Part shown: in pieces, positions 3,743-20,754 of the stretch | How the letters are laid out: each line of letters opens with the position of its first letter | Numbering within the stretch: position 1 is the first letter of the stretch | Virus record (IMG/VR): IMGVR_UViG_3300025408_000002 | Strand: one strand, 5' to 3' | Source of the DNA: an uncultured virus (IMG/VR IMGVR_UViG_3300025408_000002) | Lineage: Duplodnaviria > Heunggongvirae > Uroviricota > Caudoviricetes | Length of the DNA stretch: 27,529 bases | Program-made: the position numbers and the translations under genes | Notes under the pieces: model-generated | Database searches by the model: none | What the model saw: the letters and a program-made list of their open reading frames with translations, nothing else | What the model was told of the DNA's origin: nothing

Positions 3743-3754
3743 CAGGAGTGGAGT

Positions 3755-4828: not shown

Positions 4829-5487
4829 GACTGCTGCTGATCATATTATTTACGTCCTGCGCCACGGGCCAAGCCTACGTTTTTAATGGCGGATTTCCCG
4901 AGCATGATTCGCTGGTTGCCGAAGCATTCAAGCAAGGATATTCAAGTGTTCGGATATGGAATGGAACCGTGCAAATCGGTTCACTCTCTATTTCCCAGGC
5001 AAAAGCTACGGGCAAGACCCTGTATATTAAATCTTACAGTGGATTTGCTACTCACATTTCCGATGCAGATGACGCACTCATTTCAGGTATGTTGACAGTA
5101 ATGCCCACTGGTTCGAATACGGCTTCCAGACTTTGGAATTCGAATGCAGTGCTTCCAAGTATTGTCATCACAGGTGCGGGCGACACCGCAAACGCTACTG
5201 CATGGGATGTGGAATTTCATGCGCCCGATCCTTTCGGCGGTACAGCTTCGAGCTACGCGAACGGTTTCATCGCTGGTCAACTCATGGCTATACGGGATTC
5301 ATTGAACTGCTCATGGTGGGAAGCTCGATTTAGAGCACGAATCACGGGACATGCATGGACGCAAAAAAGTGGATATGGTAAAATCAATACGTCGGCAGCA
5401 CTTCAGTACGGCTTCGGTGTCCCACCGAATCCTTACGCGAATGGTTCGCCGAATTATCCTGAATGGTTCATTAAAAGTGGACGGTAA
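4825..5487 (+). CDS. Minimal, divergent subtilase (peptidase S8)-like exported protein (220 aa)
   Basis: ATGA overlap with upstream stop. Motifs in S8 order: AYVFNGG, EHDSLVA, MPTGSN, PSIVITGA, DVEFHAPD, ASSYANGFIAG, SGYGKINTSAAL. Confidence 0.6.
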   Translation: MRLLLIILFTSCATGQAYVFNGGFPEHDSLVAEAFKQGYSSVRIWNGTVQIGSLSISQAKATGKTLYIKSYSGFATHISDADDALISGMLTVMPTGSNTASRLWNSNAVLPSIVITGAGDTANATAWDVEFHAPDPFGGTASSYANGFIAGQLMAIRDSLNCSWWEARFRARITGHAWTQKSGYGKINTSAALQYGFGVPPNPYANGSPNYPEWFIKSGR

Positions 5488-5488
5488 T

Positions 5489-5767
5489 ATGAGCGCCTAT
5501 TCCGGTAAAATCTTCGGCACCATAACCGACGCAGAGACGGGCGAACCGCTCATCGGCGCCGTAGTGCGGGTTCATCGCCGCGACGGTCTGTACCTGGGCA
5601 GCGCGGGCACCAATCTACGTGGCGAATGGCTCTTCCTCGCCGACAACCAACCCGAGGATGTGCTTCAATTCAAGGCGGAGTATTTGGGCTATGTGTCGAT
5701 GGAGACGCTAGAGATCATCGGCCAGGACGACCCGCTGAACTTCAAACTGATGACGTTCGGACGGTGA
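5489..5767 (+). CDS. Carboxypeptidase regulatory-like (CarboxypepD_reg) single-domain protein (92 aa)
   Basis: GKIFGTITDAETGEPLIGAVV...GTNLRGEW...YLGY is the typical domain pattern; start moved to ATG 5489, just after the upstream stop. Confidence 0.75.
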   Translation: MSAYSGKIFGTITDAETGEPLIGAVVRVHRRDGLYLGSAGTNLRGEWLFLADNQPEDVLQFKAEYLGYVSMETLEIIGQDDPLNFKLMTFGR

Positions 5768-5771
5768 TGCG

Positions 5772-6164
5772 ATGAAAACAATACTTGTCCTCGCTCTGTT
5801 GCTCGCCGGCTGTTGCCAGCAACCCACGTTCGACCGCGATCCGGTAAAGGAATTCGAGCACCGCGTGCTCACCGATTACGGGTACAGTCGCGTCGATTCA
5901 CAAAACAGCACATACACCAACATCTTCGAGAAGCGTATCCACCTGCCCCATGGCTACTATCAGGTGCACATCTGGGTGGACGACCGACCGCAGGGACGAT
6001 ATGAGGTGTACGTGATGAATTCGACAACCCTGCCGAGCACGTACCTATACCACCGCGACGGCAAAGGGCAGAAAACCACGCGATTCTTTGGTTCGGTGCA
6101 CGAGGCGGAAAACTACGCGCATCGGGTGATTTCCACGCACGAGCAAGCCGTTGCCACGCAATAG
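5772..6164 (+). CDS. Lipoprotein of unknown function (130 aa)
   Basis: MKTILVLALLLAG|C lipobox; paralogous to the next gene. Confidence 0.8.
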   Translation: MKTILVLALLLAGCCQQPTFDRDPVKEFEHRVLTDYGYSRVDSQNSTYTNIFEKRIHLPHGYYQVHIWVDDRPQGRYEVYVMNSTTLPSTYLYHRDGKGQKTTRFFGSVHEAENYAHRVISTHEQAVATQ

Positions 6165-6278
6165 GTTGCGGCGGGATTTACAATAATTCGCGAGAATTTT
6201 TACGAGAATTTTCACGCAAAATGTAAGGAGACGCCATGGACTGCAAGAAGAAGGGCGGAAAGAAAGGCGGATAGCGGC

Positions 6279-6680
6279 ATGAAAATCAGCGGACTTCGCA
6301 GGGTTATACTCGAAAATAATTCCAGAATTATTCCGTTGCTTGCTCTCGCGCTGCTTGCGCTCGCATCGTGCGCCGCGCCGCGCTCCACGTACTTCGAGCG
6401 GCACATCCTTGAGACGCGCGGATACTCTCCCGTCGGAAGCGCGTCCTGGGAGCTGGCCGGAGTGTGGAAGCGAAGCCACCATCTCCCAGGCGGGCTGTAT
6501 CGGGCCGAGCTCCGCATCGTGGAGGGCGGTTACCGCGTTTCGGTGTGGCACTGGACGGGCACCGCGCGCGAACTGCTCGAAGCCGGCAAACACACCGAGC
6601 CGATACTCGACTGCGCGCTGGACGTGGCCGACGAACTGATACACAGGCGTGAAGAAAAGCACAGGATTGAACGACGGTAA
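6279..6680 (+). CDS. Lipoprotein of unknown function, paralogue of 5772-6164 (133 aa)
   Basis: LLALAS|C lipobox; FERHILETRGYSPVGS...HLPGGLY aligns with FEHRVLTDYGYSRVDS...HLPHGYY; start position uncertain. Confidence 0.7.
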   Translation: MKISGLRRVILENNSRIIPLLALALLALASCAAPRSTYFERHILETRGYSPVGSASWELAGVWKRSHHLPGGLYRAELRIVEGGYRVSVWHWTGTARELLEAGKHTEPILDCALDVADELIHRREEKHRIERR

Positions 6681-6705
6681 TCACACGGACGCGCGGGGGT
6701 ATTCC

Positions 6706-7035
6706 ATGAAACTTCGTCCTTGGTTCTGGATTGGCGTGCTACTCATGGCGCTGTATAATCACGCGGACTTTCTCTGGCAAGCGGAAATGCACGTATGGCC
6801 TGCCTGGCTGGACTTGACGCATCGAGCTCCGCACTGGCCGTGGTATCTGGACTGGATACCGCATGACGGCTGGCACGTGGTCCAATCGATCAAGAACCAC
6901 GCGGCCCTCCTCGGATCGGCATTGGTGTTCTACGGCACCGTGCACAGATGGCGTTCTCCATGGTGGGAACTCGTTGCGGTTTTGCTGGTATACGGGTTGA
7001 CGCGATTCCTGTGCTTCACGCTGTTCCTGCCGTAG
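6706..7035 (+). CDS. Small Trp-rich membrane protein with DGWH motif (109 aa)
   Basis: ATG 6706 after GGGGGT; three hydrophobic segments; last gene of the operon. Confidence 0.7.
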   Translation: MKLRPWFWIGVLLMALYNHADFLWQAEMHVWPAWLDLTHRAPHWPWYLDWIPHDGWHVVQSIKNHAALLGSALVFYGTVHRWRSPWWELVAVLLVYGLTRFLCFTLFLP

Positions 7036-7039
7036 GGCA

Positions 7040-7060
7040 GGGACGAACCATGGGACAAAC
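7040..7060. repeat. Direct repeat GGGACRAAC x2, possible integrase arm-type sites
   Basis: GGGACGAAC 7040-7048 and GGGACAAAC 7052-7060, directly after the last gene of the phage-like block. Confidence 0.35.
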
Positions 7061-7113
7061 GTAGTAAAATCCGCGAATCCAGCCGATTCACGCGGATACC
7101 GCATTGCATCCTC

Positions 7114-7167
7114 CTTCAGCTCTCAACGGCCGTACTTCCACACAGTCCTGAGAGCTGAAGCTTTTTT
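7114..7167 (+). terminator. Intrinsic terminator-like hairpin
   Basis: Perfect 12-bp inverted repeat CTTCAGCTCTCA (7114-7125) / TGAGAGCTGAAG (7149-7160) followed by CTTTTTT; the 23-nt loop is unusually long. Confidence 0.6.
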
Positions 7168-7480
7168 ATGTGGGAAGAGAGTAATGAGGTCGTGAGAGTA
7201 AGGAGGGGGGGCGAGCGGATTCTACTGCAAGCGGATTGTTGAAGGCGATGACCGGGACAGTCGGAAAGGTGTTTGTGTGAAAAGGAAAATGGTGAAAGGG
7301 GCTGCGGTCGGTTGCCCTTTTTACTTTTCCTCGTTTTGCCCCTGGAGCCGCCGGGTTAATCGGGAAGGGAATCGCCGCCGGGATGGAGGCAAGCAGCAAC
7401 AACGAATCGCTTCAGGGCGGAAGAATGGCGTGGGTTGCGCTGCTCATCGAAAATAAATCTGCCCGAGAGTTCACCACATC

Positions 7481-7509
7481 TTGCCTTTGACGACAATATT
7501 AGCTATTAT
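7481..7509 (+). promoter_or_regulatory. Sigma70-type promoter upstream of the integrase remnant and cassette array
   Basis: TTGCCT-17 nt-TATTAT; a related copy lies at 23411-23439. Confidence 0.5.
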
Positions 7510-7648
7510 CGCCCATTGTTTCAGTTGCGACGGATGGCGATGAGCGTTGTGCCCCGTGTAAGAGCTTCGAATGTGCTTCCATCTCTCCCTTGTGAGTGCG
7601 AAAGTGGGAGATGGGGTGTGGTGATACGGGGTGGTAGGTAGGAACATG

Positions 7649-7843
7649 CCGTACACGACGCGGAGAGTACGAGTTATTCCGATTGCCTGTCAGTACGACG
7701 AGAGCACGCACTAGCTCGGAGAGATGGGACATAATCGAGAGAATCCGAAAGTGTTCGAATACGCCGGTTCAAATGGCACGGAGATGCACACAGCTTTGAC
7801 GGTAACAAATATTAAGCGCATTCAGTCACGAGTAGAGGATTTG
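7649..7843 (+). pseudogene. Heavily decayed C-terminus of a tyrosine recombinase (integron-type integrase)
   Basis: Collinear degenerate motifs: PYTTRRVRVI (~PYS.RSVQ.I), TH*LG (~THLLE), DGT*SR in a shifted frame (~GTDLR), YAGSNGTEMHT (~H.SSKTTEIYT) and IKRIQSRVEDL (~I.KI.SP.DDL); catalytic residues lost. Confidence 0.5.
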
Positions 7844-7936
7844 CAGGAACTGAAGAGTGATGGCAGAATTGTAGTGGGTGGCCGCGGTCATACAAAGCCG
7901 CAGGAAATTGCGTGTATTGTATGAATATTGTGTACA

Positions 7937-7960
7937 TATAAGCAAGTTATAGCCAATGCT
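7937..7960 (+). other. attI-like primary recombination site
   Basis: TATAA-gcaag-TTATA inverted pair with GTT core at 7946; 7946-7960 is complementary (14/15) to the end of cassette 1 (9014-9028); no long attC arms upstream. Confidence 0.5.
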
Positions 7961-7974
7961 AAAAAAACAGACTA

Positions 7975-9009
7975 ATGGAAGAAATAAATAAACAGCTTGA
8001 CGCAATTTTAAATTTAGCAGACCATTATCTTGTTAAATCTCGACAGGACAAAAGCCATTATTACGATGAGTTTTTAGAAGCAGCGACAATTTTAAAAAGT
8101 GTAATGACTGAAAAGGAGTTTAAGTTTTGGTTGGCCGAAAAAATGCTAATAAAACAACAAGCATTCTTGCCGAAGACGTTTATTCAATATGCTGTTGAAA
8201 CGGCAACTGTTCGATATTTTGCTGAAAAGCATAATGAAAATTTCAGAGTTGAAGCAAAAATAAATCCTAGTAACGACAAAGACGTTGACGTTCAGTTCAC
8301 AGACAAATCCTATTTATACAATATAGAAGTAAAATGCTCTGACTTTGTAGCAAAAGAAGCAGTTGACTCTCAGGACGCCTTTAAGTATGAAACAGTTGGC
8401 AGAATACCAGAAAGACAAGAAACGAAAGAAGTTATATCAAAAGCATTAAATGAAGGAATGGCGAAAAAAGGTGAACAAACTCAACCTCATTTAGATGCTA
8501 AAAATATGGACAATAACCTAAAAGGTTTTCTTGAACTTGCCCACGAAAAATTCAATCCAACACCGAATGAAAATGAAGTAAATATTTTGCTTGTCGGTTG
8601 TGATGATGAAAGAGATATCCAAAAATGGCATTATTATTTATTCGCAAACCAAGGACTTTTTACATCTGAAAGTTATGCGGACGGAACCAAATACAACAAC
8701 GTAGACTTAGTAATTCTCACAAATCAATATTTCAAACACAACGAATACTATTCTAAAAGAGTAAAAAACTCTTGGACGCTTGAAAAGAGCTTCAATCTTG
8801 TATTTAGCAATCCGTCTAGACGATTACTAAAAGAAAAAGCGATAATGAATTTTTTAGACATATTCCCACATTACACTTGGGACTTGTGTAGTTATTCTGT
8901 TCCGGGAGACGCACCATCATACGTTAAGGACAGCGTAAGAATATCTTGGTTTGTAAAGGACAATTTGGAAAAAACAAAAGGAATTTACTTGTTTAATGAG
9001 AATGATTAA
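7975..9009 (+). CDS. Cassette 1: hypothetical protein with PD-(D/E)xK-like motif (344 aa)
   Basis: Intact AT-rich ORF; EAKINP..DKDVDVQF.....YNIEVKC fits E...D...ExK. Confidence 0.85.
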   Translation: MEEINKQLDAILNLADHYLVKSRQDKSHYYDEFLEAATILKSVMTEKEFKFWLAEKMLIKQQAFLPKTFIQYAVETATVRYFAEKHNENFRVEAKINPSNDKDVDVQFTDKSYLYNIEVKCSDFVAKEAVDSQDAFKYETVGRIPERQETKEVISKALNEGMAKKGEQTQPHLDAKNMDNNLKGFLELAHEKFNPTPNENEVNILLVGCDDERDIQKWHYYLFANQGLFTSESYADGTKYNNVDLVILTNQYFKHNEYYSKRVKNSWTLEKSFNLVFSNPSRRLLKEKAIMNFLDIFPHYTWDLCSYSVPGDAPSYVKDSVRISWFVKDNLEKTKGIYLFNEND

Positions 9010-9021
9010 CAGGAGCACTGG

Positions 9022-9153
9022 CTATAACACGGGTTTGGCAAAAGTGGCGGTTTAGTGCTCTGCGGACACATTTGTGGTTAATTAAAGTTTCGTACTCCGC
9101 ATCAAAATTTGTGGTGAAAATCGCCACTTTCGCCAAGCCCGAAACCTTTAGGT
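9022..9153 (+). repeat. attC-like site 1 (long, ~132 bp)
   Basis: R'' CTATAAC 9022-9028; arms GGGTTTGGCAAAAGTGGCG / CGCCACTTTCGCCAAGCCC (17/19 complementary); R' TTTAGGT (GTT changed to TTT). Confidence 0.75.
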
Positions 9154-9175
9154 GCAATATTTAAAACACGACTAC

Positions 9176-11206
9176 ATGGCAATAACACAGCAACAAATAA
9201 ATCAAGCAAAAATAGTTCAAGACGCGGCTGCGCAAGATTTGACACAAGCGGTCAGACTTGTTGCTGGTCCAGGAACAGGTAAGTCTTTTGTAATTGAAGG
9301 ACGAGTTTCATGGTTAATTCAAAACCAAAATATTTTACCCGACAACATTATCGCTGTTTCATTTACAAGAGCAGCGGCAAATGATTTAAGACGTAGAATT
9401 CAATCCAAAGGGCAAAGTGTTGGAATAAATGATATACATAGAGTTAGAGTGTCGACTTTGCACTCGTTAGCTTTATATATTTTACGCAAGACGGGTAACT
9501 TAGCGCAATATCCAACTGACCCAGTAATCTTGGATGATTGGGAGTTGGACAACATTTTCGACAGCGAATTCAGTAGTTCAATTGGCATAACACCAACAAG
9601 AGCTAGTGAAATAAGAAGAGACCATGAAGCATTTTGGAGCACTGGGGTTTGGAATCCAGCCAACTTGCCACCTCTTAACAATCCTGTTTCACAACAAGAA
9701 AGAAATTATTTTAATGGGCACTATGCAACAAGAACACAAACTTATTCTTGCGTATTACCGGGAGAAGTTATACGGACTTGTGTGGACGCAATAAATGGTG
9801 GACATATTGACCCTGTGGCAGAGCTTGGAGTTGAGCATGTAATTATTGATGAAGTTCAAGACTTAAATCCTTGTGATTTCCAATTCATTGATATACTTAT
9901 CCAACGTGGGGTTAATGTATTCGTATCGGGTGATGACGACCAAAGCATATATTCATTTCGATTTGCCTTCCCGCAAGGGATTCAGAACTTTGTTGTTAAC
10001 TATCCAATTGCAAGTAATCATTTATTAAAAGACTGTTTCCGTTGCACAGTTAATATTTTAGGTGCTGCTGCAAATGTATTGAATACATATCCTGACCCAA
10101 ATAGGATTCCTAAGAATTTAACTTCGGTTTATTCCGCTTCCAATCCAACTAACAATGGGTATATTGTTGGCAACAGATTCAACACTGCCAACCAAGAAGT
10201 AGAATACATTGCAAATAGTTGTGCTAGTCTTATTAATAGCGGCATTTCCCCTAAGGACATAATGATTCTTTTGGGAAACAAAAGAACCTTGCTCGACCCA
10301 ATCACTGATGCATTAGGAGTAAGAAACATACCTTTTGATGCAAATCAAAGAGATGTTTTTAAAGATTCCGACCATGGTAGATTTCTAATAAGCCTATTGC
10401 GAATATTAACTGATGCAAATGATTATGTTGCACATAGAGTGCTGTTGGGAGCTCCAAGGGGCATTGGACAAAGAACAACTAATTCTATTGCAAATAAGGT
10501 TATTGCAAACAACTTGAATTACAGAAATATATTTTATCAACCATTGCCAAATAATGTTTTTGCAAACCGAGAACCGAATGCAATTAATAAAGCCATTAGT
10601 AATATAAATATAGTTAACGCTTGGAACTTAAATGAAGACTTAAACCAAAGAGCTGGTGATATTGACCAAATTATTTTAATCAATTTCACTCAAGCTGAAG
10701 TGACTGATTGGAGAAATCAAATTCAAAATATACCATTATCAATGACTCTTTCGGAACTTAAGGAATACATTGAAACGGATTCCGAAGTTGTAAAGTCCAG
10801 CATTATCGCCAATATTCTTCAAAGGCAAAATCATCAAGGGAACAATCCGCCTGCACAAAACCCTCTCGACAAAATTAGAATTATGTCTTTTCATTCTTCA
10901 AAAGGACTTGATTCCAAAATTGTCTTTATTCACGGATTAGAAGAAGGTATCTTTCCAACATTACGGTCGCAGCAATCTCCAGGTCTTATTCTAGAAAATG
11001 CAAGACTATTTTATGTGGCTATTACTAGAGCAAAAGCAGCCTGCTTATTGAGTTACTCATCAAGAAGAACTATTAATGGGACATACACACATACGGTAGC
11101 TTCAAGATTTGCTCAGGCAACTGGGGTTGTATTTACGCAACAAGCAAATAATCAGCTGAGTGCTAATGAAATTGCACAAATACAGACATCCATTGCAGAC
11201 TTATAA
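9176..11206 (+). CDS. Cassette 2: UvrD/Rep/PcrA-family SF1 DNA helicase (676 aa)
   Basis: AGPGTGKS, SFTRAAA, STLHSLA, IDEVQD, GDDDQSIYSFR, FRC, HSSKGL, RLFYVAITRAK; start moved to ATG 9176 because GTG 9152 lies inside the attC. Confidence 0.92.
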   Translation: MAITQQQINQAKIVQDAAAQDLTQAVRLVAGPGTGKSFVIEGRVSWLIQNQNILPDNIIAVSFTRAAANDLRRRIQSKGQSVGINDIHRVRVSTLHSLALYILRKTGNLAQYPTDPVILDDWELDNIFDSEFSSSIGITPTRASEIRRDHEAFWSTGVWNPANLPPLNNPVSQQERNYFNGHYATRTQTYSCVLPGEVIRTCVDAINGGHIDPVAELGVEHVIIDEVQDLNPCDFQFIDILIQRGVNVFVSGDDDQSIYSFRFAFPQGIQNFVVNYPIASNHLLKDCFRCTVNILGAAANVLNTYPDPNRIPKNLTSVYSASNPTNNGYIVGNRFNTANQEVEYIANSCASLINSGISPKDIMILLGNKRTLLDPITDALGVRNIPFDANQRDVFKDSDHGRFLISLLRILTDANDYVAHRVLLGAPRGIGQRTTNSIANKVIANNLNYRNIFYQPLPNNVFANREPNAINKAISNINIVNAWNLNEDLNQRAGDIDQIILINFTQAEVTDWRNQIQNIPLSMTLSELKEYIETDSEVVKSSIIANILQRQNHQGNNPPAQNPLDKIRIMSFHSSKGLDSKIVFIHGLEEGIFPTLRSQQSPGLILENARLFYVAITRAKAACLLSYSSRRTINGTYTHTVASRFAQATGVVFTQQANNQLSANEIAQIQTSIADL

Positions 11207-11221
11207 AAAGAGAAATACTGA

Positions 11222-11353
11222 GCCTAACAGCCGTTTGTCGAAATGGGGGCTTGCGTGGTTAAATCAAGTGCATTGCTTCTGCCAACATTTGTGCTTAGTT
11301 GACAGTCAAGTGCTCCGAAATCCCCCACTGCGGCAAACGACATAGCGTTTTCG
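11222..11353 (+). repeat. attC-like site 2 (long, ~132 bp)
   Basis: R'' GCCTAAC; arms CGTTTGTCGAAATGGGGG / CCCCCACTGCGGCAAACG (15/18); R' GTTTTCG. Confidence 0.75.
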
Positions 11354-11424
11354 GCAAGGCGTGGAGAACAGTGCGAACTCAAACAATGCGACAAGAAATA
11401 GTCACATTATTGACAAAATTGGCG

Positions 11425-12333
11425 ATGAAAACAAAAAATACACAATGCAACGAAGACGGCGACAATGGTATCATTGCTGCTTCTGTGATTGTAACAATTG
11501 CAATTATTGGACTATGGACTTTAACATATATTTTATTGAAAGACTTAGAAGAAGGAGCCAGAGGGACGTTTGGTGATATGTTCGGTTCAGTAAACGCATT
11601 GTTTTCTGGACTTGCATTCGCAGGTATTATCCTAACCATATTGCTGCAACGTAAAGAACTAAAATTACAAAGAGAAGAACTCAGATCCACGAGAGCTGAG
11701 TTTGAAACACAAAACGAAACTTTGAAGCTTCAACGTTTTGAAAACACTTTTTTTAGCATTCTCAACCTTCATCACCAAATTGTATCTGCTATTGATTACA
11801 GATATTACGTGAGCAAAAAGAGAAAAAAAAATTTTATCGAAAAAGGTTTTAAGACGATGAAGCCAGAGGAAATGGAGGCTGTGACAATAAAAGGACGAGA
11901 CGTATTTCGACACCGGTACAATTTGATGCTTCCAAAACTCAAAGAACATCCTGACAAATACGAAGAAATATACATGTCCCATTACGAAACTGCTCAGACG
12001 GACTTTGGCCATTACTTTAGAAATCTTTATCGAATGATAAAGTTGGTTGACCAAACGGACTTTTTTTATGACAGTAGAACGGTTTCAAAAGAGGAGATTT
12101 GCAAAATTAAGTATCGGTATACCAGTATAATTAGGTCTCAAATATCAGACTATGAACTACTTTGGATATTCTATAATTGTTTAAGTGCGAACGGCAAGAA
12201 CAAATTCAAGCCTCTTGTAGAGCATTATTCATTTTTTAAAAACATACCGACAAGCCTTATTGCGGACAAAATGCATGCAGGCTTGTATGATAAAAAAGCC
12301 TTCACGCCAAATGACATACAGCACAGCCGCTAA
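11425..12333 (+). CDS. Cassette 3: putative phage abortive infection protein (putAbiC-like, two N-terminal TM helices)
   Basis: GTFGDMFGSVNALFSGLAF..LQRKEL..QRFENTFF...GHYFRNLY...IIRSQISDYEL..IFYN..KFKPLVE.Y.FFKN. Stop TAA is part of R'' CGCTAAC. Alternative start at 11386. Confidence 0.85.
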   Translation: MKTKNTQCNEDGDNGIIAASVIVTIAIIGLWTLTYILLKDLEEGARGTFGDMFGSVNALFSGLAFAGIILTILLQRKELKLQREELRSTRAEFETQNETLKLQRFENTFFSILNLHHQIVSAIDYRYYVSKKRKKNFIEKGFKTMKPEEMEAVTIKGRDVFRHRYNLMLPKLKEHPDKYEEIYMSHYETAQTDFGHYFRNLYRMIKLVDQTDFFYDSRTVSKEEICKIKYRYTSIIRSQISDYELLWIFYNCLSANGKNKFKPLVEHYSFFKNIPTSLIADKMHAGLYDKKAFTPNDIQHSR

Positions 12334-12373
12334 CAAGCGTTTGGCTCAATGGCGGGTGACGTGGTTAATTAAA
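12328..12373 (+). repeat. Truncated attC-like site 3 (left half only)
   Basis: CGCTAAC AAGCGTTTGGCTCAATGGCGGGTGACGTGGTTAA parallels the left half of site 2; the right arm is replaced by the 196-bp repeat. Confidence 0.7.
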
Positions 12374-12374
12374 C

Positions 12375-12570
12375 CCTGAATCCGTGAGTAGCACCATCTG
12401 CGCGTCCCAAATATCCTGATCGAGAGTGACTTCCGAGATGGCCAGTTCCTTTCACATGACCGATTCGATTTTTATGACGATTTCACGCACTCAATGTATC
12501 GGATATTATGACCATGTACATGCCGGAACGGCTCCGGTGATCGGAGCGAAGGTATTAATTCAACACAGAA
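12375..12570 (+). repeat. 196-bp direct repeat, copy 1
   Basis: Ungapped match to 17455-17650 with 9 mismatches by hand count. Confidence 0.95.
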
Positions 12571-12587
12571 CTAACCGTCTCGGATGT

Positions 12588-12690
12588 GCGCAACATGCCA
12601 GGTGAGTTCTTGCCGAAGGTAGAAAGTGGCGCGTAAACAAAATATTGCCTCAAACGCGTATCTCAAGGATCGGAACTCACGGAATTAGGG
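12588..12690 (+). repeat. Degenerate attC-like site (short-box type)
   Basis: GCGCAAC, then perfect inverted pair GTGAGTTC (12602-12609) / GAACTCAC (12673-12680), then ATTAGGG, 30 nt before the next ORF. Confidence 0.4.
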
Positions 12691-12720
12691 CAAAATGTTC
12701 AATCAATAAATGGTTGTAAA

Positions 12721-14628
12721 ATGCCGGTGATAATCAACAGAAGTGACGCTCCAGATCACTTGTTTGATATCCCTGAGTTGGATTTCTCCGGGGATCTGTT
12801 TGCAGAGCGCTTAGGTGGTCCATGGTTCAGACTTGGCGCGTGGACTATCGAACCTCGTCGCGACGAACGGGAAGTTGAGGATGTTGTCGAACGCCAAAGC
12901 ATTCTAATCGATCCTGAGTGCTTTGCTAAGATTTTTGAAACCTTAGATTCTATCGACAACGTTCTCGGCAGGCTTGGGAAGCCGAGTGGCTCAGTTCACT
13001 ATGTGGATGGAGAGAAAGAATATAGGTACAGTCCCTTTCACCAGTTTGATCTAACGCATGACTCCGCTATCGGTGAGCCATTGGTTTTTAGGAATCCCAC
13101 ATCCTCTGGTTTCGAGCTTATTATTAATCCGGACTTATGGCTCTTCTTTGAGTTGGTGGAAAAAGCGCACGGCAATGGCATTTGGTGGGACCCGCGTAAA
13201 GGAGTTGACGCAATAGTTCAGCGTGTGATTGGCTCGAGCAAACTGGAAGTCGTTGAAATAAGAGTCGATTATCTGAGTAAATACCTCCAGTCGCGTCAAA
13301 AGACATTACTCGTCGGCCATTATCGCCACCTGCATCTATTTGCACAGACTCAAAGAAAGATTGATGCATTTGCGAACGAGGACGTGACTTTGGGGTCGCC
13401 AGAACAGGGCGCGAAGGTCGTCGTGCAAAATTGGGGGCTCCAGAGGGATCCTACACCATTCCTCCAACGAAGGTTGCACCTGTGGATCGAGATTAGACCG
13501 CCAGCGATCAATGTCGACGATCCATGGGCCGACCAGCCGCCCTTCGACCCATACATGTTCACGCTGCCTACTCGGGTCGGTCCAGTGGCCCCTGCACGTT
13601 GGACCCGCTTTCGCGGTAATGAAGTGAGCACATTCGAAGGTAGCGTCTGCGACTTTATGGATTGCGTCTGGTTTCGTCAGGAGGTATTGACTAAATATGA
13701 AGGGGCTTCAGGTTTCGAGATAGCGGATAATGGTTCTGTTTCATGTCACCATTACTGGGGGCTTAACCGCAGTACGGCGAGGATTGGGAACGAACTACTT
13801 GCCACTGCCATCGGCGACTTTGCTGAGGGGGTCCCTTTTGAGGAGTGGCCACACTGGAAACAGTATGCAGTCGAACCGCCAAGTCAAGAGGCGATAGAGA
13901 CACTCAGAGACGAACAGACGGTGGCTGACGCAGTCAATTCCCTTGTCCAAGCACTTGACGATCTCAATTATGCCTTCGAAGAATTAGCCGGTTCGCTTGG
14001 TGTGACGATTCCGGAACCGCTTTGGCAAGGATCACTCAATAGTTTAGCTGCCCGACAGCTGAAATGGGTATATCCTGCTACAGCGGATGATGACGAATTC
14101 ATGAAACGAGCGACTCTCGCTTCAACGCTGGTTCTTGAGGCGCTGAAACCAGCGTCACTAAGGAAACTGTTGATTGCTATATACCCAAATCTCCACATGA
14201 TCGACGAGACTCCACCCCGACCTCTTGGTTCACGTAATCTCCTACAGCGGTTAACCTTGATTGCGACGCTATTCGAAGAATTCCAAGCCGACATTGTGAT
14301 CATTCCGAGTTTAGTGAAGCAAGCGGAGGGTAAAGCTCATGATGAAGGCGAGCCTGAGCTACTTGAGGAATTGGAAAGTGCATACAGAAGGTTACGAGAC
14401 GAATTTGCTCCATTGGCTTTCCTATATGACCTAAGAACTTACGGCGGGCTTGCTCACGCACCGAACAACGCTCAGGCCTCGAAGACAGCAGTGCAACTTG
14501 GCCTCCCTGAGAAGAACTGGCACCGCTCAGACTATCTCCTTCTTCTCAAAGTTGTTGCAGATAGCTTACGCAAGATCAGCAAACGCCTTGACGGGGCTAT
14601 ACAAGCTATCATTAAGCGAAGTGGATGA
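12721..14628 (+). CDS. Cassette 4: hypothetical protein with C-terminal HEPN-like helical domain (635 aa)
   Basis: Long intact ORF; helical C-terminus with LYDLRTYGGLAH (R-x6-H); function inferred only. Confidence 0.8.
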   Translation: MPVIINRSDAPDHLFDIPELDFSGDLFAERLGGPWFRLGAWTIEPRRDEREVEDVVERQSILIDPECFAKIFETLDSIDNVLGRLGKPSGSVHYVDGEKEYRYSPFHQFDLTHDSAIGEPLVFRNPTSSGFELIINPDLWLFFELVEKAHGNGIWWDPRKGVDAIVQRVIGSSKLEVVEIRVDYLSKYLQSRQKTLLVGHYRHLHLFAQTQRKIDAFANEDVTLGSPEQGAKVVVQNWGLQRDPTPFLQRRLHLWIEIRPPAINVDDPWADQPPFDPYMFTLPTRVGPVAPARWTRFRGNEVSTFEGSVCDFMDCVWFRQEVLTKYEGASGFEIADNGSVSCHHYWGLNRSTARIGNELLATAIGDFAEGVPFEEWPHWKQYAVEPPSQEAIETLRDEQTVADAVNSLVQALDDLNYAFEELAGSLGVTIPEPLWQGSLNSLAARQLKWVYPATADDDEFMKRATLASTLVLEALKPASLRKLLIAIYPNLHMIDETPPRPLGSRNLLQRLTLIATLFEEFQADIVIIPSLVKQAEGKAHDEGEPELLEELESAYRRLRDEFAPLAFLYDLRTYGGLAHAPNNAQASKTAVQLGLPEKNWHRSDYLLLLKVVADSLRKISKRLDGAIQAIIKRSG

Positions 14629-14695
14629 TCTGTACTCGAACGAGGCTATTTGAGAGGCTATTTGAAAAGTTTTACGAACACAACCGCGTGTCGCT

Positions 14696-14789
14696 GCCCA
14701 GCAACTGAGTGGAGCCCCCCACGCCAATGGCAACATTTTGGCAGTTGGACTTTATCGAAGACGTGTCAGCTCACCGCATAACTTTAGAC
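14696..14789 (+). repeat. Degenerate attC-like site
   Basis: GCCCAGC (R'', AAC changed to AGC), GTGGAGC / GCTCAC L boxes with one extra base, TTTAGAC (R', GTT changed to TTT). Confidence 0.55.
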
Positions 14790-14805
14790 GGAGGCCAAGA
14801 TCATC

Positions 14806-16089
14806 ATGCACAAGGTAGACATCTTTTCACCATTCGAAAACCGACCCGATCATCACGAGGATCGACTGAGCTGGGGGCTTATGGTAGCGTTGAAGTACGC
14901 CCCTGAACTCCAACGGATGCTACGTGATCTCATCATTGGTAAACTTCCTGCAGGAAGATGGCCGATCAGGACAGACTGGGAACCTGCCTCTGTCTCTACG
15001 CAAACCGCTAAACTTGGGACGGACGCCGCATTCGTTGTATCAGTCCTATTGTCAGACACGTCCCTAGACACACAGGTTGATGTGCGACTATCCGAAAGAA
15101 CCGCCCGGTATGACGGAGTCGTTCAGTATACAGATGGCTTTGTCTTGGTAATCGAAAACAAACCCCGCCGATCCCACGTGTGGATCACACAACTGTCGCC
15201 GAGTCGCGAATCATTCACCGATCTTGCTGACGATGTTGAACTATTCGAACAAGCTGTCTCAATTGAATGGGCCGAGGTACTTGAAGGAATACTCAACTGC
15301 TCCGGATCACGAGTAGCTACCTACTCCGCGCGAAGCCTTGCTAGTGATTTTCTTCGCTTCGTCGAAGATCTCCATCCCACGCTCAGCCCGTACCGAACTT
15401 TCGAACTGTGCGGCAAGCGGCAAGAAGCGTTTACGAGGAGGATAGAGACGCTATTGAATTCCATTGGTCAAGGCACTGGCTGCGAGGTAGGTGTCAGACC
15501 AGGCGCTCAACCGTACCTCAACCTTTCTTTGATGGCTGTCCAGCAGCTCCATCTCTCAGTCGTTAATTCAGAGGATTGGGGGGAGGTTCTTATGCTGAAA
15601 ATTTGGCCGGGCGATACTGTAAAGCAGGCTCGTGCTTTCTTTGAGCGAGTTAACCGAGGCGCATTTCTCAATTTGGAAAACCAAGGCTGGCAAATCAGAC
15701 CGAACCTCCACTTCTCGCATATGCAAAAGCATTTAGTCTGGGCAAATACAGGGCTTCGCGTATCTGAGTATTTCGATTACTTCGCTACAAACATCAATGA
15801 GATCGGAAAGAAGAATTTCGAGGAGATGTCGTTGGCAGATTTGACTATGAAATGGGAAGGAGCTGGCCTAATTTCGGCAGAAGACACCGAGAAACTGCAA
15901 CGAATGTTCGGTGAGACCAAACGGAGCTTCCTCAACGTTATTCCGGGATTCAATCTGGTGAGTGCTCTACCGATGGCAAAGGTAATCGAATTCGAGAGAT
16001 CTCATCGCCTCGAACAAGAACTTCTCGATTCCCTGCAAGTCCCAATATCTGCATGGGGTGAAAGCATCCCCCAATGGGGCTCCGTCTGA
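14806..16089 (+). CDS. Cassette 5: PD-(D/E)xK nuclease superfamily protein (427 aa)
   Basis: RBS GGAGG; HEDRLS...RYDGVV.....VLVIENK catalytic pattern in the N-terminal domain; uncharacterised C-terminal half. Confidence 0.8.
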   Translation: MHKVDIFSPFENRPDHHEDRLSWGLMVALKYAPELQRMLRDLIIGKLPAGRWPIRTDWEPASVSTQTAKLGTDAAFVVSVLLSDTSLDTQVDVRLSERTARYDGVVQYTDGFVLVIENKPRRSHVWITQLSPSRESFTDLADDVELFEQAVSIEWAEVLEGILNCSGSRVATYSARSLASDFLRFVEDLHPTLSPYRTFELCGKRQEAFTRRIETLLNSIGQGTGCEVGVRPGAQPYLNLSLMAVQQLHLSVVNSEDWGEVLMLKIWPGDTVKQARAFFERVNRGAFLNLENQGWQIRPNLHFSHMQKHLVWANTGLRVSEYFDYFATNINEIGKKNFEEMSLADLTMKWEGAGLISAEDTEKLQRMFGETKRSFLNVIPGFNLVSALPMAKVIEFERSHRLEQELLDSLQVPISAWGESIPQWGSV

Positions 16090-16172
16090 TTATGGAGTTG
16101 ACCAGATGCGAGCGGAAGCTATTCTGTGCAGACTTGTTTCATAAGCCAATGGACGCTGAAAAGTCGTTAGCT
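16084..16172 (+). repeat. Degenerate attC-like site closing cassette 5
   Basis: CTCCGTCTGAT (16080-16090) is complementary (9/11, 8 contiguous) to the cassette start TTTAGACGGAG (14783-14793); canonical R' GTTAGCT at 16166-16172. Confidence 0.5.
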
Positions 16173-16191
16173 GGGCAACATCAATGACTAA

Positions 16192-16812
16192 TAGCCTGTT
16201 GAACAAATCCGTGATTTGAATCGAACCCACCTATGTTAGCCCCGGAATCAAATGTCCAAGACGACAAGAACTGTTGTTCTCAACCGCAGATGGAGGCGTT
16301 GGTGGCTCACCACTTTGACCAAGAACACGAGGATTCTGGAAAGCAACGAAACCATGGCGTATTTCACAACCGCAAATTCTGGTTTCCGAGTCTAGCAACC
16401 AAAGCGGACGCGAATATGAGGCGAGAGCGTCTGAAGAATCGAGAGCGAATCCTCGCAGCGCGAAGCGATGGCGCGTTCGCTCGGGAGGTTCTCGAAAAAT
16501 CCGATTAACAACATCTTGAAGTGTACGGCGGGATCGATACCGGGATAGCCGCGGTCGGAACTGGCGAAGTACGGAGCGCAGAAGTCGCGGGTTTTTCGGA
16601 GGAAATCCAATTCCTCGAGCAATGCTTCGGAGGCGTCCCAGAACTGCGTCGCCGAACCACGGCGCAATTTGCCGGTCGGAACCCACAACTCGGGTTGGAT
16701 GGGTGGCTCTTTCTTCCTGAACATCGGAACTCGCGACGGAAAATGAACTTGTTTACGATAAACAAGATAACGATATCTTATGAGAATTTAAAGAGAATAC
16801 TTCAACAGGCTG
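16192..16812 (-). mobile_element. Internally deleted IS1182-like (IS5-related) element, ~620 bp
   Basis: Terminal inverted repeats AGCCTGTTGAA (16193-16203) / TTCAACAGGCT (16801-16811) enclosing a transposase fragment. Confidence 0.85.
16392..16724 (-). pseudogene. Truncated transposase, N-terminal DUF772-like domain only
   Basis: GYPGIDPAVHFKMLLIGFFENLPSERAIASRCEDSLSI motif; no DDE domain follows. Confidence 0.85.
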
Positions 16813-16846
16813 ATAGCAGATAGCCAAGCAAGGAGATACCCTACAC

Positions 16847-17467
16847 ATGTACCACAATTGGTTGATTGCTGTTGGTTTCATTATCCTTTTGGTAGGTTGT
16901 GAACATCATACCCTCCACATGGAGGGTTATCGAATCGCAGATGGTTGTTACATATGGCGTGTGGTCAATTATGATAGCACAATTTTGGATTATGATGACA
17001 CCACACGGGTGGTTCTGGACTATGAAAAAATGAGTAGAACACGGAAGGAGTTAGCATATCTTGAGTTGGCAATTGCGCTTCAGTCAGAAATCGAGGTCTG
17101 CAGTAGTTGCCTCGATATTCCAAGCTGGTTGGAATATCATGATAGTGATGGACCATCATTCGGTGAGCTGAGCGCCGATACCAACTATACTGCTATCGCC
17201 ACAGGTGGGAGTTGCTCGCTTTGTGGCACGCTGTGGGATGGCTCCAAACTTGTTCCCAAAAGTGGGTCCAAAGCAGAGAGAACCGCTGACAGCTTGGTCG
17301 TTCACCGATTCCAGTTGCTTACAGCCTTGCGATCAAAATTGAAGATTAGGGTGGATCCAGCACAGCTAGAGTTAGAACACCGACTCCGACAAAGTTTATT
17401 ACGTATTCCAAATCCAGAAGAGGGAAATGAACCACTCGGTGTAATGATTGAATACCTGAATCCGTGA
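16847..17467 (+). CDS. Lipoprotein of unknown function with two CxxC motifs (206 aa)
   Basis: RBS AAGGAG; IILLVG|C lipobox; CSSC and CSLC. Confidence 0.75.
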   Translation: MYHNWLIAVGFIILLVGCEHHTLHMEGYRIADGCYIWRVVNYDSTILDYDDTTRVVLDYEKMSRTRKELAYLELAIALQSEIEVCSSCLDIPSWLEYHDSDGPSFGELSADTNYTAIATGGSCSLCGTLWDGSKLVPKSGSKAERTADSLVVHRFQLLTALRSKLKIRVDPAQLELEHRLRQSLLRIPNPEEGNEPLGVMIEYLNP

Positions 17468-17650
17468 GTCGCGCCATCTGCGCATCCCAAATATCCTGAT
17501 CGAGAGTGACTTCCGAGATGGCCAGTTCCTTTCACATGACCGATTCGATTTTTATGACGATTTCACGCACTGAATATATCGGATATTATGATCATGTACA
17601 TGCCGGAACGGCTCCAGTGTTCGGAGCGAAGGTATTACTTCAACACAGAA
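17455..17650 (+). repeat. 196-bp direct repeat, copy 2
   Basis: See copy 1; begins in the last codons of the 16847-17467 gene. Confidence 0.95.
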
Positions 17651-17891
17651 GGGGGAGCTTCCTCAGAGCGACGAGAGAAATGCCGGCGTCCAGGCATTAT
17701 GCTCGCACACTCGCAGGATCAACTGGCCCGCGTGAGAGACCACAACACCGGCGTGCGTATACACGCTGAATTTGTACTTCAAGCGCATTTTCAAACTGAT
17801 CGAGACTAACTGAAGCAGATATTTGCATGGCATGGAGTGAAGTGTTTTGTAAATAGTAATTACGATTAACCGTACATCGTCAGGAGAGGAT

Positions 17892-18527
17892 ATGCGAACA
17901 TTGTCAAATAGATCAAGTTATATTCTGATATCCGTCGTCGGGATATTGTGTATCATCATATTCTATCTGATGACTAGAATTGAAGAACTGGAGACAGAAG
18001 GCGCAAGCATGGAGGCAGCGCACAAGGAAATGAAGGGCAAAGTTATTCGTGAACTGCTCAGTAACATGCCAGGGGTTTATCTGGAAGCGGAACATCACAT
18101 GCGGCGCGGAGAAACGAGGGATTTCACAATTAATATTCACGGGATGGGGGATTCGGTCCAGTTCGCTACTCCACCGGAAGTTATTGTGTTTAGGAATGGA
18201 GTCAAAGTTCAGAAGCTTCGGTATCCGGACCAAATTCGAGACTCGTTTTATATTTATGAAACCAGCAACCGTATGCTGCGATTCACATGGACTGCTGATT
18301 ATGGCCCCGGAGTGTATGAGCTGTGGATTAATGTGGAATCGAACAAGGTATCACTACAGCCATCTGTCGTAGGCGCTGAAGCAAGAGTAAGGATCGGTTC
18401 TCTGGAATTCTCAAGGCGCGAAATCAAAGAGGCAATACATCTTTCAGATGATGAGGAGCTGTATATTCAGGATTCGCGTGATAGGAGAATTCTTCCGGAT
18501 AACAAAGCGATAATTATCGTGCATTGA
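17892..18527 (+). CDS. Membrane-anchored hypothetical protein (211 aa)
   Basis: RBS AGGAGAGG; N-terminal TM helix, short coiled coil, beta-rich C-terminus. Confidence 0.75.
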   Translation: MRTLSNRSSYILISVVGILCIIIFYLMTRIEELETEGASMEAAHKEMKGKVIRELLSNMPGVYLEAEHHMRRGETRDFTINIHGMGDSVQFATPPEVIVFRNGVKVQKLRYPDQIRDSFYIYETSNRMLRFTWTADYGPGVYELWINVESNKVSLQPSVVGAEARVRIGSLEFSRREIKEAIHLSDDEELYIQDSRDRRILPDNKAIIIVH

Positions 18528-18612
18528 TGAATGTCGTCACGATTCTGCTCGATGCATTTTAAGGGGCTCCATTGGTTCATTATCGCCATGGTGCTCCCGC
18601 AACGCCTCCATC

Positions 18613-18632
18613 CGCGGTTGAGGACAACCGCG
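18613..18632. repeat. REP-like palindrome
   Basis: CGCGGTTG-AGGA-CAACCGCG perfect 8-bp stem, imperfectly extendable; intergenic. Confidence 0.4.
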
Positions 18633-18804
18633 CTTGTGGGCGTGGACAGTTGATTCCGGGGCTGCCATAAGTGAATTAGATTCAAAATGGTAGATTGTTT
18701 AGCAGGTTGTTGCAATCTCTGACTATGTATATCAGAGTACCGTTAGTGGCATCGCAAGATGACTGTAAAATTAAATATTTATAATAGAAATAGCTAGCCA
18801 AAAA

Positions 18805-19428
18805 ATGCGAAACATGAATATTCTCGACAAACAAATTTATCAATTTAGAGACAGGATGGTTGCAGATGTTGGAGTTGAAGAGCGGTATTTGGCCGTAATA
18901 TGCACGACAATATACCAAGAGCTCTCTGTGCTGAAAGCGGAACAGTTAGATAAGATAGAATTCGCTTCGCCTGTCAAGTTGGATCTCCGAATCGAGGAGC
19001 TAGAAGCCTTCAATATGATGATGAGCAGAGTAAATAGACAATTAGCAAGCATCCCAGAAATTGTGCGCGCCCAAGTAATAGTTCAGAATTATATTGCGTT
19101 TGTTTACCTGAAGGATAATTGTTTTGACGTGGCAAAAAGAATCGTTCCTCAAGACTCACTTCTGAGAAGGCTTTGTAAGTTTCTGCTGAACAACCCTGTG
19201 AGGGCATTTAGAAATTCTATTGCTCACGGTAATTGGCAGTACACCTCAGACTTTACAGGTATAAAATATTATGCATATAAAGGTGAGAGCAAGCCTTGCG
19301 TTGAATTAGAAGAGATGTCTGAGTTTGTTGTTAAAAATGATGAATTGGAATTCTGGCAAGCACTTTCAAGGGCGACAGCATACACCATTTACACATGCAT
19401 TGTCGAAAACAGGGAAATGCGACAATGA
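18805..19428 (+). CDS. HEPN-motif hypothetical protein (207 aa)
   Basis: Helical AT-rich ORF with FRNSIAHG (R-x4-H); alternative start at 18814. Confidence 0.75.
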   Translation: MRNMNILDKQIYQFRDRMVADVGVEERYLAVICTTIYQELSVLKAEQLDKIEFASPVKLDLRIEELEAFNMMMSRVNRQLASIPEIVRAQVIVQNYIAFVYLKDNCFDVAKRIVPQDSLLRRLCKFLLNNPVRAFRNSIAHGNWQYTSDFTGIKYYAYKGESKPCVELEEMSEFVVKNDELEFWQALSRATAYTIYTCIVENREMRQ

Positions 19429-19550
19429 ATCAAGTTCGACAAGTTTGCATTAGCGGACTGTTGAAATAACTAGATTCCGTGAACAATGGAGAAATCAGAC
19501 AGGATACGGCATTAAAAACTGACGAAACCCGACACTTCTGCAGGCTGTTA

Positions 19551-19979: not shown

Positions 19980-20080
19980 GGCGGTCTCCTCAGTGCGTGT
20001 CGTCCCGGTTTGCGAATTCAATCGCAATCGTTCGAGATGGAAATGTGGCAAATCATCTGGCGAAAATCAAGAAGGCTCAC
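19915..20080 (-). repeat. Shared upstream region + RBS + lipoprotein signal module, copy A
   Basis: Aligns with 20590-20754 over ~165 bp, including an identical GATGAGAATGGTGGTTTTCATGGCGGTCTCCTCAGTG core. Confidence 0.9.
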
Positions 20081-20210
20081 GGTGGTCTGTCTGATTTGTC
20101 TGGCGTAGTCCTGCACTTCGACAGACTAAGAGCTTTCCGCGATGGGACCCGCAGTATCACTCCAGCAGGGCTTTCTGGAGTACCTTTTACATGAGGAAGG
20201 GTTACTTGCG

Positions 20211-20654: not shown

Positions 20655-20754
20655 GGCGGTCTCCTCAGTGTGCGGCGTAGCGCCGTGCGAAGTCAATGTA
20701 ATCGTTCGAGACGGGAATGTGGTAAATCTTCGGGCGAAAATCAAGCAGGTTCAC
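20590..20754 (-). repeat. Shared upstream region + RBS + lipoprotein signal module, copy B
   Basis: See copy A. Confidence 0.9.

Follow-up and report, generated by a model that had tools for sequence, protein, structure and literature searches.

Does this locus hold a gene-capturing platform of the integron kind and, if so, how much of it is left and to which family does it belong? The question is raised by an uncultured virus record, IMG/VR IMGVR_UViG_3300025408_000002, whose 27,529 nucleotides (the whole stretch analysed here, hereafter “the window”) correspond to the minus strand of positions 1-27457 of contig C15 in a draft genome of 4.69 Mb (G000). A first-pass annotation, made from the letters of the window, had proposed between 7649 and 16172 an integron variant with five single-gene cassettes behind a decayed tyrosine recombinase. 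The main idea of that annotation largely stands, with an array of three cassettes confined to 7778-12373, and we consider it highly probable that this segment is a truncated remnant, no longer mobile, of a cassette platform which resembles an integron and is widespread in Bacteroidota.

An intact platform is headed by a Xer-like recombinase gene directly upstream of the array, usually in the same orientation, with an attI-like site about 100 nt past the recombinase stop, where circular single-gene cassettes would enter at G|TT. Each cassette carries an attC-like site of ~135 nt, in which a long hairpin with covarying stem pairs stands between an R'' box (…TAAC) and an R' box (GTTA…). An exchange between two of these sites, presumably catalysed by the array recombinase on a folded single-strand substrate, would excise or reshuffle the cassettes, whose genes would be expressed. 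What is left of all this in the window is the tail of the recombinase, the attI-like site and three cassettes, the third attC being cut by a repeat of the host genome.

attC-like sites and cassette boundaries

Three co-oriented genes of the window (7975-9009, 9152-11206 and 11299-12333, + strand) are each followed by one member of a repeat family, and the three members, called IG1 to IG3 below, all start with …TAAC, four bases and GTTTG(G/T)C. IG1 (9014-9155, +) has the TAAC of its R'' box at 9025-9028, stem arms at 9030-9053 and 9118-9141 and an R' box at 9147-9152; its 24-nt arms are 88% complementary, and it folds better than shuffled sequences on both strands (z -3.08 and -3.35). It scores 143.7 bits with R1, a covariance model built on a 55-copy alignment of the element and run on the window with filters off, and has an nhmmer E-value of 7.3e-43. 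IG2 (11214-11355, +; R'' TAAC 11225-11228, R' GTT 11347-11349) is homologous to IG1 (R1 92.9 bits) and belongs to a subtype in which the conserved GTGGTTAA loop motif lies much closer to the 5' arm. IG3 (12320-12373, +) is a 5' half only: its TAAC (12331-12334) overlaps the stop codon of the gene, R1 gives it 7.3 bits (E 3.3), and the complement of its 5' arm, that is, the missing 3' arm, was found nowhere in the window, the search matching only the arm itself. The long attC-like sites that had been proposed behind these genes are thus confirmed as three homologous imperfect palindromes of ~135 nt, the third reduced to its 5' half.

The structure of the site emerges from the 55-copy alignment. 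Its long stem is 91.4% paired, with changes on both sides in 16 of the 18 pairs, and RNAalifold reports a compensatory change in 15 of 17 pairs; the covariation score of 0.399 was reached by none of 500 shuffles (0.137) and compares with at most 0.073 when partners are slid. AAC and GTT are retained in 50-54 of the 55 copies. The spacer between R box and stem is asymmetric, with a single A on the 5' side and AAAAC or AAACC on the 3' side, and two A·C mismatches are conserved in the stem, whose consensus is free of bulges. Homology and this covariation are what supports IG2. Rfam has no such family (window scanned at gathering cut-offs, a consensus copy at E <= 10), and a tRNA scan of the window likewise returned no match.

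How far does the element extend beyond the window? A degenerate pattern derived from the three window repeats was run on a species-representative genome collection and matched at least 122 loci, with record titles nearly all from Bacteroidota orders, where about 0.1 would be expected by chance according to our own arithmetic. The 85 matches in the 80 loci that we fetched are one element of ~135 nt, about 90-95% identical between variable flanks, with TAAC to its left and GTTA to its right. A profile search with nhmmer listed 143 non-overlapping copies in 79 loci and the window; 44 of these 80 sources hold one copy and 36 hold 2 to 9, in no case with mixed orientation. Elements are separated by 62 intervals of 315-5124 nt (median 1685 nt), all but three of which (59) hold a co-oriented open reading frame (ORF); the gap between the stop of such an ORF and the site is below 40 nt in 87 of 127 cases. 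A custom covariance model, as advised by the first-pass annotation, proved useful here: besides IG1 and IG2, R1 detects the element in 80 of 151 genomes (51 of 89 genera) that sample the host's phylum evenly. Within the host's own family, the element is present in only 5 of 23 genomes. A second, single element was noticed in the draft genome itself (contig C4:2265-2429, 107.4 bits), with an R'' lacking TAAC and behind an apparently AT-rich gene.

As for the host, we infer a member of the Bacteroidota/FCB group with a GC content of ~55-60%, because the tail domain of type IX secretion is matched at least 114 times in the draft genome (0 in 14 of 14 control genomes) and because the element found in genomes of the same phylum is the one that contig record titles assign almost only to Bacteroidota.

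The boundaries of the units were examined by taking consecutive elements of a locus and matching the 9 nt that follow GTT in element n to the complement of the 9 nt that precede AAC in element n+1, in other words the start of a cassette to its own R'' box. This own-site complementarity averages 5.76 of 9 (n = 54), against 3.63 within the same element and 3.38 between loci (sd 1.45); it lies above that of the adjacent site in 40 of 52 pairs, below it in 9, with 3 ties. The start of a cassette is hence complementary to its own R'' box. In the same 9-nt register, cassettes 1-3 of the window, absent from the 52-pair set, give 8/9, 6/9 and 4/9 when counted by hand. The longer counts of the first-pass annotation (14/15, 12/16 and 9/14) could be reproduced, and the flank repeat of gene 1 (13/14) arose in 0 of 200 shuffles. 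A cassette start that complements its own rather than the adjacent R'' is the classic sign of units inserted and excised at GTT, and the boundaries look as expected for such an exchange by way of circles.

One could also imagine that the hairpins are non-autonomous insertion elements, similar to miniature inverted-repeat transposable elements (MITE), repetitive extragenic palindromes (REP) or IS200/IS605 insertion sequences, or else terminators in an ordinary defence island, in which case the genes would be no cassettes at all. The hairpin body, conserved at ~90-95% across distant genera between variable flanks, would suit such elements, as would the reassortment of bodies with R'' classes described below and the many single copies. 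However, an insertion into a palindromic target makes the two flanks of one element complementary to each other, whereas the match observed here is to the far side of the next element (the 40 of 52 pairs above). In addition, copies within a locus always point the same way behind the stop of a co-oriented ORF, entire units of gene and flank turn up again in unrelated surroundings with their breaks lying at GTT, the arrays are headed by a dedicated recombinase and an attI-like site, and the hairpin is not followed by a run of T in the copies inspected. We therefore regard insertion elements or terminators as very unlikely.

The strongest single result is the recurrence of cassette 1 in four unrelated contexts. 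It is found at 96% nucleotide identity in the metagenome contigs L166/L167, behind a different, intact recombinase with its attI, and again in L168 and L173, behind the 3' ends of other attC sites; G7946 of GTTATAGCC is the exact point at which the homology begins in all of them, the DNA upstream being unrelated.

The same comparison brings in a complication. In L166/L167, cassette 1 is identical to ours up to TATAACA and then continues into a hairpin of the IG2 type (86-88% identity) instead of the IG1 type. More broadly, 74 classes can be told apart among the 11-mers at the end of the R'' box (8 nt plus AAC); 14 classes have at least 3 members, and many of these, e.g. CTGGCTATAAC, GAACCGCTAAC and CAGCAGGTAAC, combine with several types of hairpin body. 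Such reassortment may come either from rare secondary swaps or from exchange at both hairpin edges. The second possibility would lead to a different view of the same platform, in which gene units with inverted GTTA…/…TAAC repeats at their ends would be exchanged at the two edges of the hairpin, in closer likeness to the Xer-dependent dif modules of Acinetobacter plasmids than to the one-sided exchange of integrons. The swapped body of cassette 1 and the several body types paired with many of the 14 larger R'' classes would follow directly from it, and Xer-like recombinases without the IntI insertion, as well as a consensus stem without bulges, would fit. Yet an otherwise identical cassette with another body is seen clearly in one case only, the same reassortment could have built up over long times through rare secondary events, and the present data do not tell which strand or strands are cut. 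On balance, exchange at both edges seems unlikely to us as the general mode, and we keep to an integron-like platform with its crossover at GTT.

The array ends at 12373. The remainder of the third attC is replaced by the first copy of a host-genome repeat (12374-12570, +), which marks the boundary and lies outside the array. This repeat of ~200-300 bp has further copies at 17454-17755 and on another contig (C9:61715-62013), with 92-95% identity and a sharp 5' edge common to all copies; possibly it is a shared leader or a mobile element's end. Just downstream of its first copy, 12581-12690 is ~75% similar to C9:60351-60463. A DNA search in the 23 genomes of the host's family revealed no conserved synteny for 5000-20000, so an empty site could not be defined.

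The recombinase of intact relatives and its remnant in the window

With two array-adjacent recombinases as tblastn queries, homologues were located within 6 kb of an element in 14 of the 79 loci. Ten of the 14 are full-length and co-oriented with the array, one is full-length and divergent (L026), one is divergent and cut by the edge of its locus, which holds only its start (L065, the full gene being L147), and two are C-terminal fragments (L063 and L075). Once L148 (beside L077) and L166/L167 are added, 12 recombinase genes stand co-oriented directly upstream of their array and 2 are divergent (L026 and L065/L147). The intact relatives whose search had been recommended, with recombinase, attI and array in a row, do therefore exist. 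Their recombinases are 345-386 aa long, with a conserved N-terminal extension, the catalytic residues R, K, H, R, H and Y and a C-terminal SP(L/F)D. An attI motif, CG..TATA…N…GTTA, lies 95-135 nt past the stop of those co-oriented recombinases that show one, and upstream of the start in the two divergent cases. Family members scoring at least 275 bits were detected in 12 of the 15 genomes of one Bacteroidales family.

Are these enzymes integron integrases? On the integron-integrase model TIGR02249, whose cut-off is 265 bits, L147 and L148 reach 179.2 and 208.1 bits, in two stretches, and on the XerA/integron NCBIfam model (cut-off 220) they reach 199.7 and 213.0 bits; the insertion specific to IntI, as seen in the true IntI of genome G013, is absent from 12 of 12 aligned array recombinases. 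They thus fall outside the IntI family with its extra domain. What stands from the proposal of an FCB-type integron variant with a co-oriented integrase is an integron-like platform of Bacteroidota with a mostly co-oriented recombinase; the recombinase itself is not an IntI.

These scores also bear on whether the window might be the remnant of a canonical integron, i.e., clustered attC sites without an integron integrase (CALIN), with sites served by an integrase of the IntI type. True IntI genes do occur in two genomes of the host's family (456.6 bits in G013, of the same genus, and 483.6 bits in G007, for a cut-off of 265), the sites follow the AAC…GTT logic of attC, and, set against the usual definition (at least 2 attC and no integrase nearby), the window offers two full sites and one half without an intact recombinase. 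However, these sites belong to a non-IntI family: all the full-length recombinases beside such arrays are of the other family (the two scored remaining well below the cut-off) and lack the IntI insertion. Moreover, elements and intI are on different contigs in G013 and G007, no such repeats were seen in the intI neighbourhoods inspected in these two genomes, and G000 has no IntI above the cut-off. Bacteroidetes have also been reported as nearly devoid of integrons by IntegronFinder, as far as the accessible text of these sources goes (PMC9024848; bioRxiv 10.1101/2024.07.02.601686). A canonical remnant is consequently the reading to which we give the least credit, and we consider it extremely improbable. 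As a separate observation, three tandem repeats of ~100 bp with internal inverted repeats, which do not belong to the family studied here, are located ~3 kb from the start of intI in G013 (L012:3933-4229).

Nothing of this recombinase family was detected in the host genome, where the best homologue is XerC/D-like with ~30% identity, and no full-length member was detected in the 23 genomes of the host's family, two of which have C-terminal fragments (G007:C13:36579-38109 and G018:C292:13340-13801). Together with the fragments of L063 (7757-7981) and L075 (9814-10069), these suggest that arrays are repeatedly found with a recombinase gene cut from its 5' side; in G007, L063 and L075, the element lies downstream of the fragment on the same strand.

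The window itself offers a shorter case. A position-specific scoring matrix (PSSM) built from the C-terminal 22 residues of the array recombinase family ranked the peptide encoded at 7778-7843 (+), TEMHTALTVTNIKRIQSRVEDL, first of the 27,905 stop-free 22-residue windows in the six frames of the whole window (14.23, the next one scoring 9.31). In an hmmsearch, it was also the best of 47 pieces, with 3.0 bits (E 0.084), and aligned to positions 332-357 of the 358 of the profile; a His occupies the position of the catalytic Tyr. Upstream of 7778, box II was not found (best local rank 207 of 39,669), Pfam at E <= 10 returned no recombinase on seven ORF pieces in 7400-7975, and a genome-wide scan with Pfam Phage_integrase gave no match within 7400-7975. 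Because the tail matches at 7778-7843 and neither box II nor a Pfam signal precedes it, the recombinase gene is cut down to its final 22 codons, with nothing detectable upstream. The recombinase tail announced at 7649-7843 accordingly holds for 7778-7843, including its end at 7843, and fails for 7649-7777.

Past this tail comes the attI-like site (7925-7949, +), with the crossover between G7946 and T7947 (…ACATATAAGCAA G|TTA…). It agrees with the motif found 95-135 nt past the stop of intact recombinases, and model R1 gives 13.6 bits (E 0.088) to 7923-7971. The site that had been noted ~100 bp after the tail is well supported, as its motif matches those of the relatives and the homology of cassette 1 begins at G7946; as with the attI of integrons, it sits beside the recombinase and cassettes join it at G|TT.

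We read the array of the window as a foreign fragment, fixed and decaying, without a working recombinase. The cassettes would be fixed in place because two R' boxes are substituted, attC 3 is truncated and the genome holds no recombinase of the family. The R' box of IG1 is TTTAGG instead of the family's GTTA (it reads TTT at the place of a G kept in at least 90% of copies), and that of IG2 is followed by TTCGGC, against AGCGGC predicted from the R'' of its cassette. The GC content along the window is 0.547 at 1-7600, 0.367 at 7947-12373, 0.481 at 12374-20000 and 0.589 from 23500 to the end. It is also low in related arrays (0.346-0.362), even beside a recombinase and flank of 0.51-0.53.

Cargo of the cassettes and the genes beyond 12373

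Cassette 1 (7947-9147, +) carries the gene at 7975-9009, which encodes a 344-aa protein of a Bacteroidota family without a Pfam entry; no Pfam, NCBIfam or PADLOC family matches it. Its 159 homologues are from Bacteroidota wherever the source names an organism, and only one is labelled (a UniRef “Restriction endonuclease”); E118 and K120 are invariant among them and D105 nearly so. The structure model (predicted local distance difference test, pLDDT, 93.9) has PD-(D/E)xK nucleases as its top fold matches, namely, the CdiA-CT toxin domain, BsmI, PaqCI, McrC, Can2, NucC and HamA. In the wide structure search, matches were mostly nucleases with Z 6.9-4, and Foldseek against the PDB returned nothing at E <= 0.001; as these Z values stay under the 8 taken as distinctive and Foldseek gave no match, a nuclease-like protein of the PD-(D/E)xK kind is plausible for gene 1.

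Cassette 2 (9148-11347, +) has an ORF at 9152-11206, with a likely start at ATG 9176, for a GajB-like helicase of the UvrD family (Pfam: 143.4 bits for UvrD-helicase, 109.8 bits for UvrD_C; PADLOC GajB 180.7 bits). One has to keep in mind that GajB works in Gabija next to GajA, a nuclease of the OLD family. Here, GajA has no match, gene 2 is the sole gene to match Gabija, and gene 1, which matches no PADLOC family, is a separate cassette that is found elsewhere behind other attC sites (L168 and L173) and not beside the helicase of gene 2; for these reasons, gene 2 is a stand-alone cassette and the pair is no Gabija system. Cassette 3 (11348-12373, +), cut within its attC, has an ORF at 11299-12333 for an AbiC-like membrane protein; its start is likely ATG 11386, because 11299 falls inside attC 2. 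The protein belongs to putAbiC (PF16872; 73.7 bits for a Pfam cut-off of 22, residues 233-318 of the 11299-12333 frame) and resembles the lactococcal Abi genes, with PADLOC matches to AbiP (36.2 bits) and AbiC (32.8 bits).

From these family matches, the three genes most likely serve anti-phage defence. The cargo had been described as nuclease-, helicase-, Abi- and HEPN-like: the helicase and the Abi protein are borne out, the nuclease is plausible, and no HEPN family was found in the genes proposed as cassettes. The sole HEPN hint in the window is a sub-threshold match at 18805-19428 (E 0.019). Cassette starts, in the window (7946-7975 and 9147-9178) as in related loci, have in common a leader of ~25 nt, GTTA…CA…TAAAA(A)GAC(G)AC, before the start codon, which may be a translation or promoter signal.

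Among the relatives, we surveyed 108 cassette-terminal proteins, of which 37 had no Pfam family at E <= 1e-4. The others are diverse and include restriction and modification enzymes, GmrSD, AIPR, TIR, RES, Fic and Macro proteins, P-type ATPases, acetyltransferases, peptidases and regulators. For a comparison with PADLOC, 32 of the 108 were chosen for their defence-like Pfam matches or as long unknowns, and 17 of these 32 matched defence models (AbiU, PDC-S26, bSEFIR, HEC-05, HEC-06, type IIG, type II systems, type IV Mrr, PDC-S04, RT-protease-like, ZorE, DarG and ShosA). In the window, where PADLOC had been suggested as a check, two of the three cassettes have matches (genes 2 and 3). To judge from such matches, defence genes appear to be a frequent part of the cargo of a platform whose gene pool is broad; the idea of a defence-gene bank therefore captures part of the picture and is too narrow for the rest.

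The two genes that follow, at 12721-14628 and 14806-16089 (GC about 0.5), had been counted as cassettes 4 and 5 and have to be removed from the array. No attC-like element accompanies them (nhmmer at E <= 1 over the genome; R1 with filters off), and their flank repeats are at chance level, the 9/11 of gene 5 being reached in 155 of 200 shuffles and the best repeat of gene 4 (10/11) in 50 of 200. Neither gene matches a Pfam, NCBIfam, PADLOC or HEPN family; both belong to protein clusters without names, spread over several phyla, with one weak PDDEXK_4 lead (0.89).

Kinship with integrons and rAID-1, and the surroundings of the array

Several points weigh against the interpretation of 7778-12373 as a fragment of an integron-like platform. 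The complementarity that defines the units is modest for cassettes 2 (12/16) and 3 (9/14), and both the circular intermediate and the recombination itself are deduced from the boundaries. A simple integron model does not predict different hairpin bodies on the same cassette 1. IG2 by itself folds no better than shuffled sequences (z -0.37 and -0.32). Extrahelical bases guide the choice of strand in integrons, and the consensus hairpin has none bulged; the bottom strand is the more stable one in 35 of the 55 copies, by a small margin (mean -1.23 kcal/mol). The remnant of the recombinase gene is not long and, by hmmsearch alone, non-significant (E 0.084 among 47 pieces). The loci were collected with a pattern derived from the window, and this favours the most conserved subtype of site. 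Lastly, the defence roles come from family matches, and gene 1 has no significant family or fold match.

The platform otherwise shares the main traits of integrons: an attI beside the recombinase, co-oriented and mostly single-gene cassettes, …AAC/GTT… palindromes with the order R'' (…AAC), L'', L', R' (GTT…), a crossover at G|TT and cassette starts complementary to their own R''. It differs from them in its recombinase, which lacks the IntI insertion, scores under the cut-off and is usually co-oriented with the array, and in its sites, which are long and far more conserved in sequence across genera, with an asymmetric loop (A against AAAAC), no consensus bulges and differing bodies on the same cassette. 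According to the portion available to us of a recent preprint, defence genes are among the cargo of chromosomal integrons, as they are here, and Bacteroidota count among the clades in which no integrons had been found before (bioRxiv 10.1101/2024.07.02.601686).

The closest described system, as far as its accessible description allows a comparison, is rAID-1 of gut Bacteroidales, reported in 226 of 423 Bacteroidales genomes and recognised by an XerD-like recombinase at the 5' end that has an identity of at least 44% to BF9343_RS08045 (bioRxiv 10.1101/471110); a 2025 preprint, in the part accessible to us, retains this definition (10.1101/2025.05.03.651265). The likeness lies in the 5' tyrosine recombinase, in co-oriented short genes with a GC content of at most 41%, in intergenic repeats reminiscent of integrons (bioRxiv 10.1101/471110) and in a high prevalence, comparable to the 12 of 15 genomes of one Bacteroidales family found here. 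The window has three co-directional genes at a GC of 0.367, the published description asking for at least 2 such genes, and it has intergenic repeats, to be set beside a published motif that is given as a figure only. Conversely, the description of rAID-1 concerns Bacteroidales and orphan genes of immunity to type VI toxins, whereas the sites studied here occur across the phylum and have a broad cargo with many phage-defence genes. The passages describing rAID-1 define no attC-like structure, crossover or attI (bioRxiv 10.1101/471110). In the literature full texts, leaving aside subscription papers, figures and supplements, we came across nothing, rAID-1 apart, that describes how the site is structured, where the crossover lies or a platform common to the Bacteroidota.

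Integron surveys, in their accessible parts, present Bacteroidota as almost integron-free (PMC9024848; bioRxiv 10.1101/2024.07.02.601686), and rAID-1 has been called merely integron-reminiscent; the present evidence ties these two views together through defined parts, namely, a recombinase family, an attI motif, a covarying 135-nt site and a GTT crossover. Going further, the platform might be a second, phylum-wide kind of integron, with a Xer-like recombinase devoid of the IntI insertion, its own attI and a structured 135-nt attC, present in about half of Bacteroidota genomes and with rAID-1 as one of its branches; exchange at either hairpin edge would reassort gene units, R-box classes and hairpin bodies, and standard finders would miss it. 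We put this forward tentatively, with more doubt than confidence; if true, the platform would be a main route of defence and accessory gene trade among Bacteroidota. It becomes worth asking whether integron-style capture has arisen twice or is older than the IntI insertion, how a strand is chosen without bulged bases, and what share of the accessory and defence gene flow of Bacteroidota passes through such arrays. The locus of the window, being decayed, is of value as a pointer to the platform and as an example of pieces of arrays in lineages that do not keep the recombinase.

Around the array, predicted promoters and terminators are at the level of shuffled sequences (15 against 14.1 and 5 against 4.5), in a scan whose scope does not include Bacteroidota-type promoters. 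A sequence of ~40 nt at 7165-7212 recurs on at least 5 other contigs of the draft genome and in a genome of the same genus (G012). Farther downstream, a 98-nt inverted repeat with 81% identity is formed by 16215-16312 and 18589-18686, and the ORFs at 19692-20108 and 20142-20867 have a repeated segment in common, which is also present ~50 kb away on the same contig (C15:55570-55918). The end of the window (23577-27527) is occupied by a restriction-modification-like cluster, with an Eco57I/MmeI-type methyltransferase split into ORFs of 217 aa and 524 aa and followed by a T5orf172/ResIII protein that partially matches a type IIG model. Finally, a trypsin-like protease of 537 aa (21509-23122, −) resembles the protease part of the PADLOC RT-Protease_XI models (51.9 bits).

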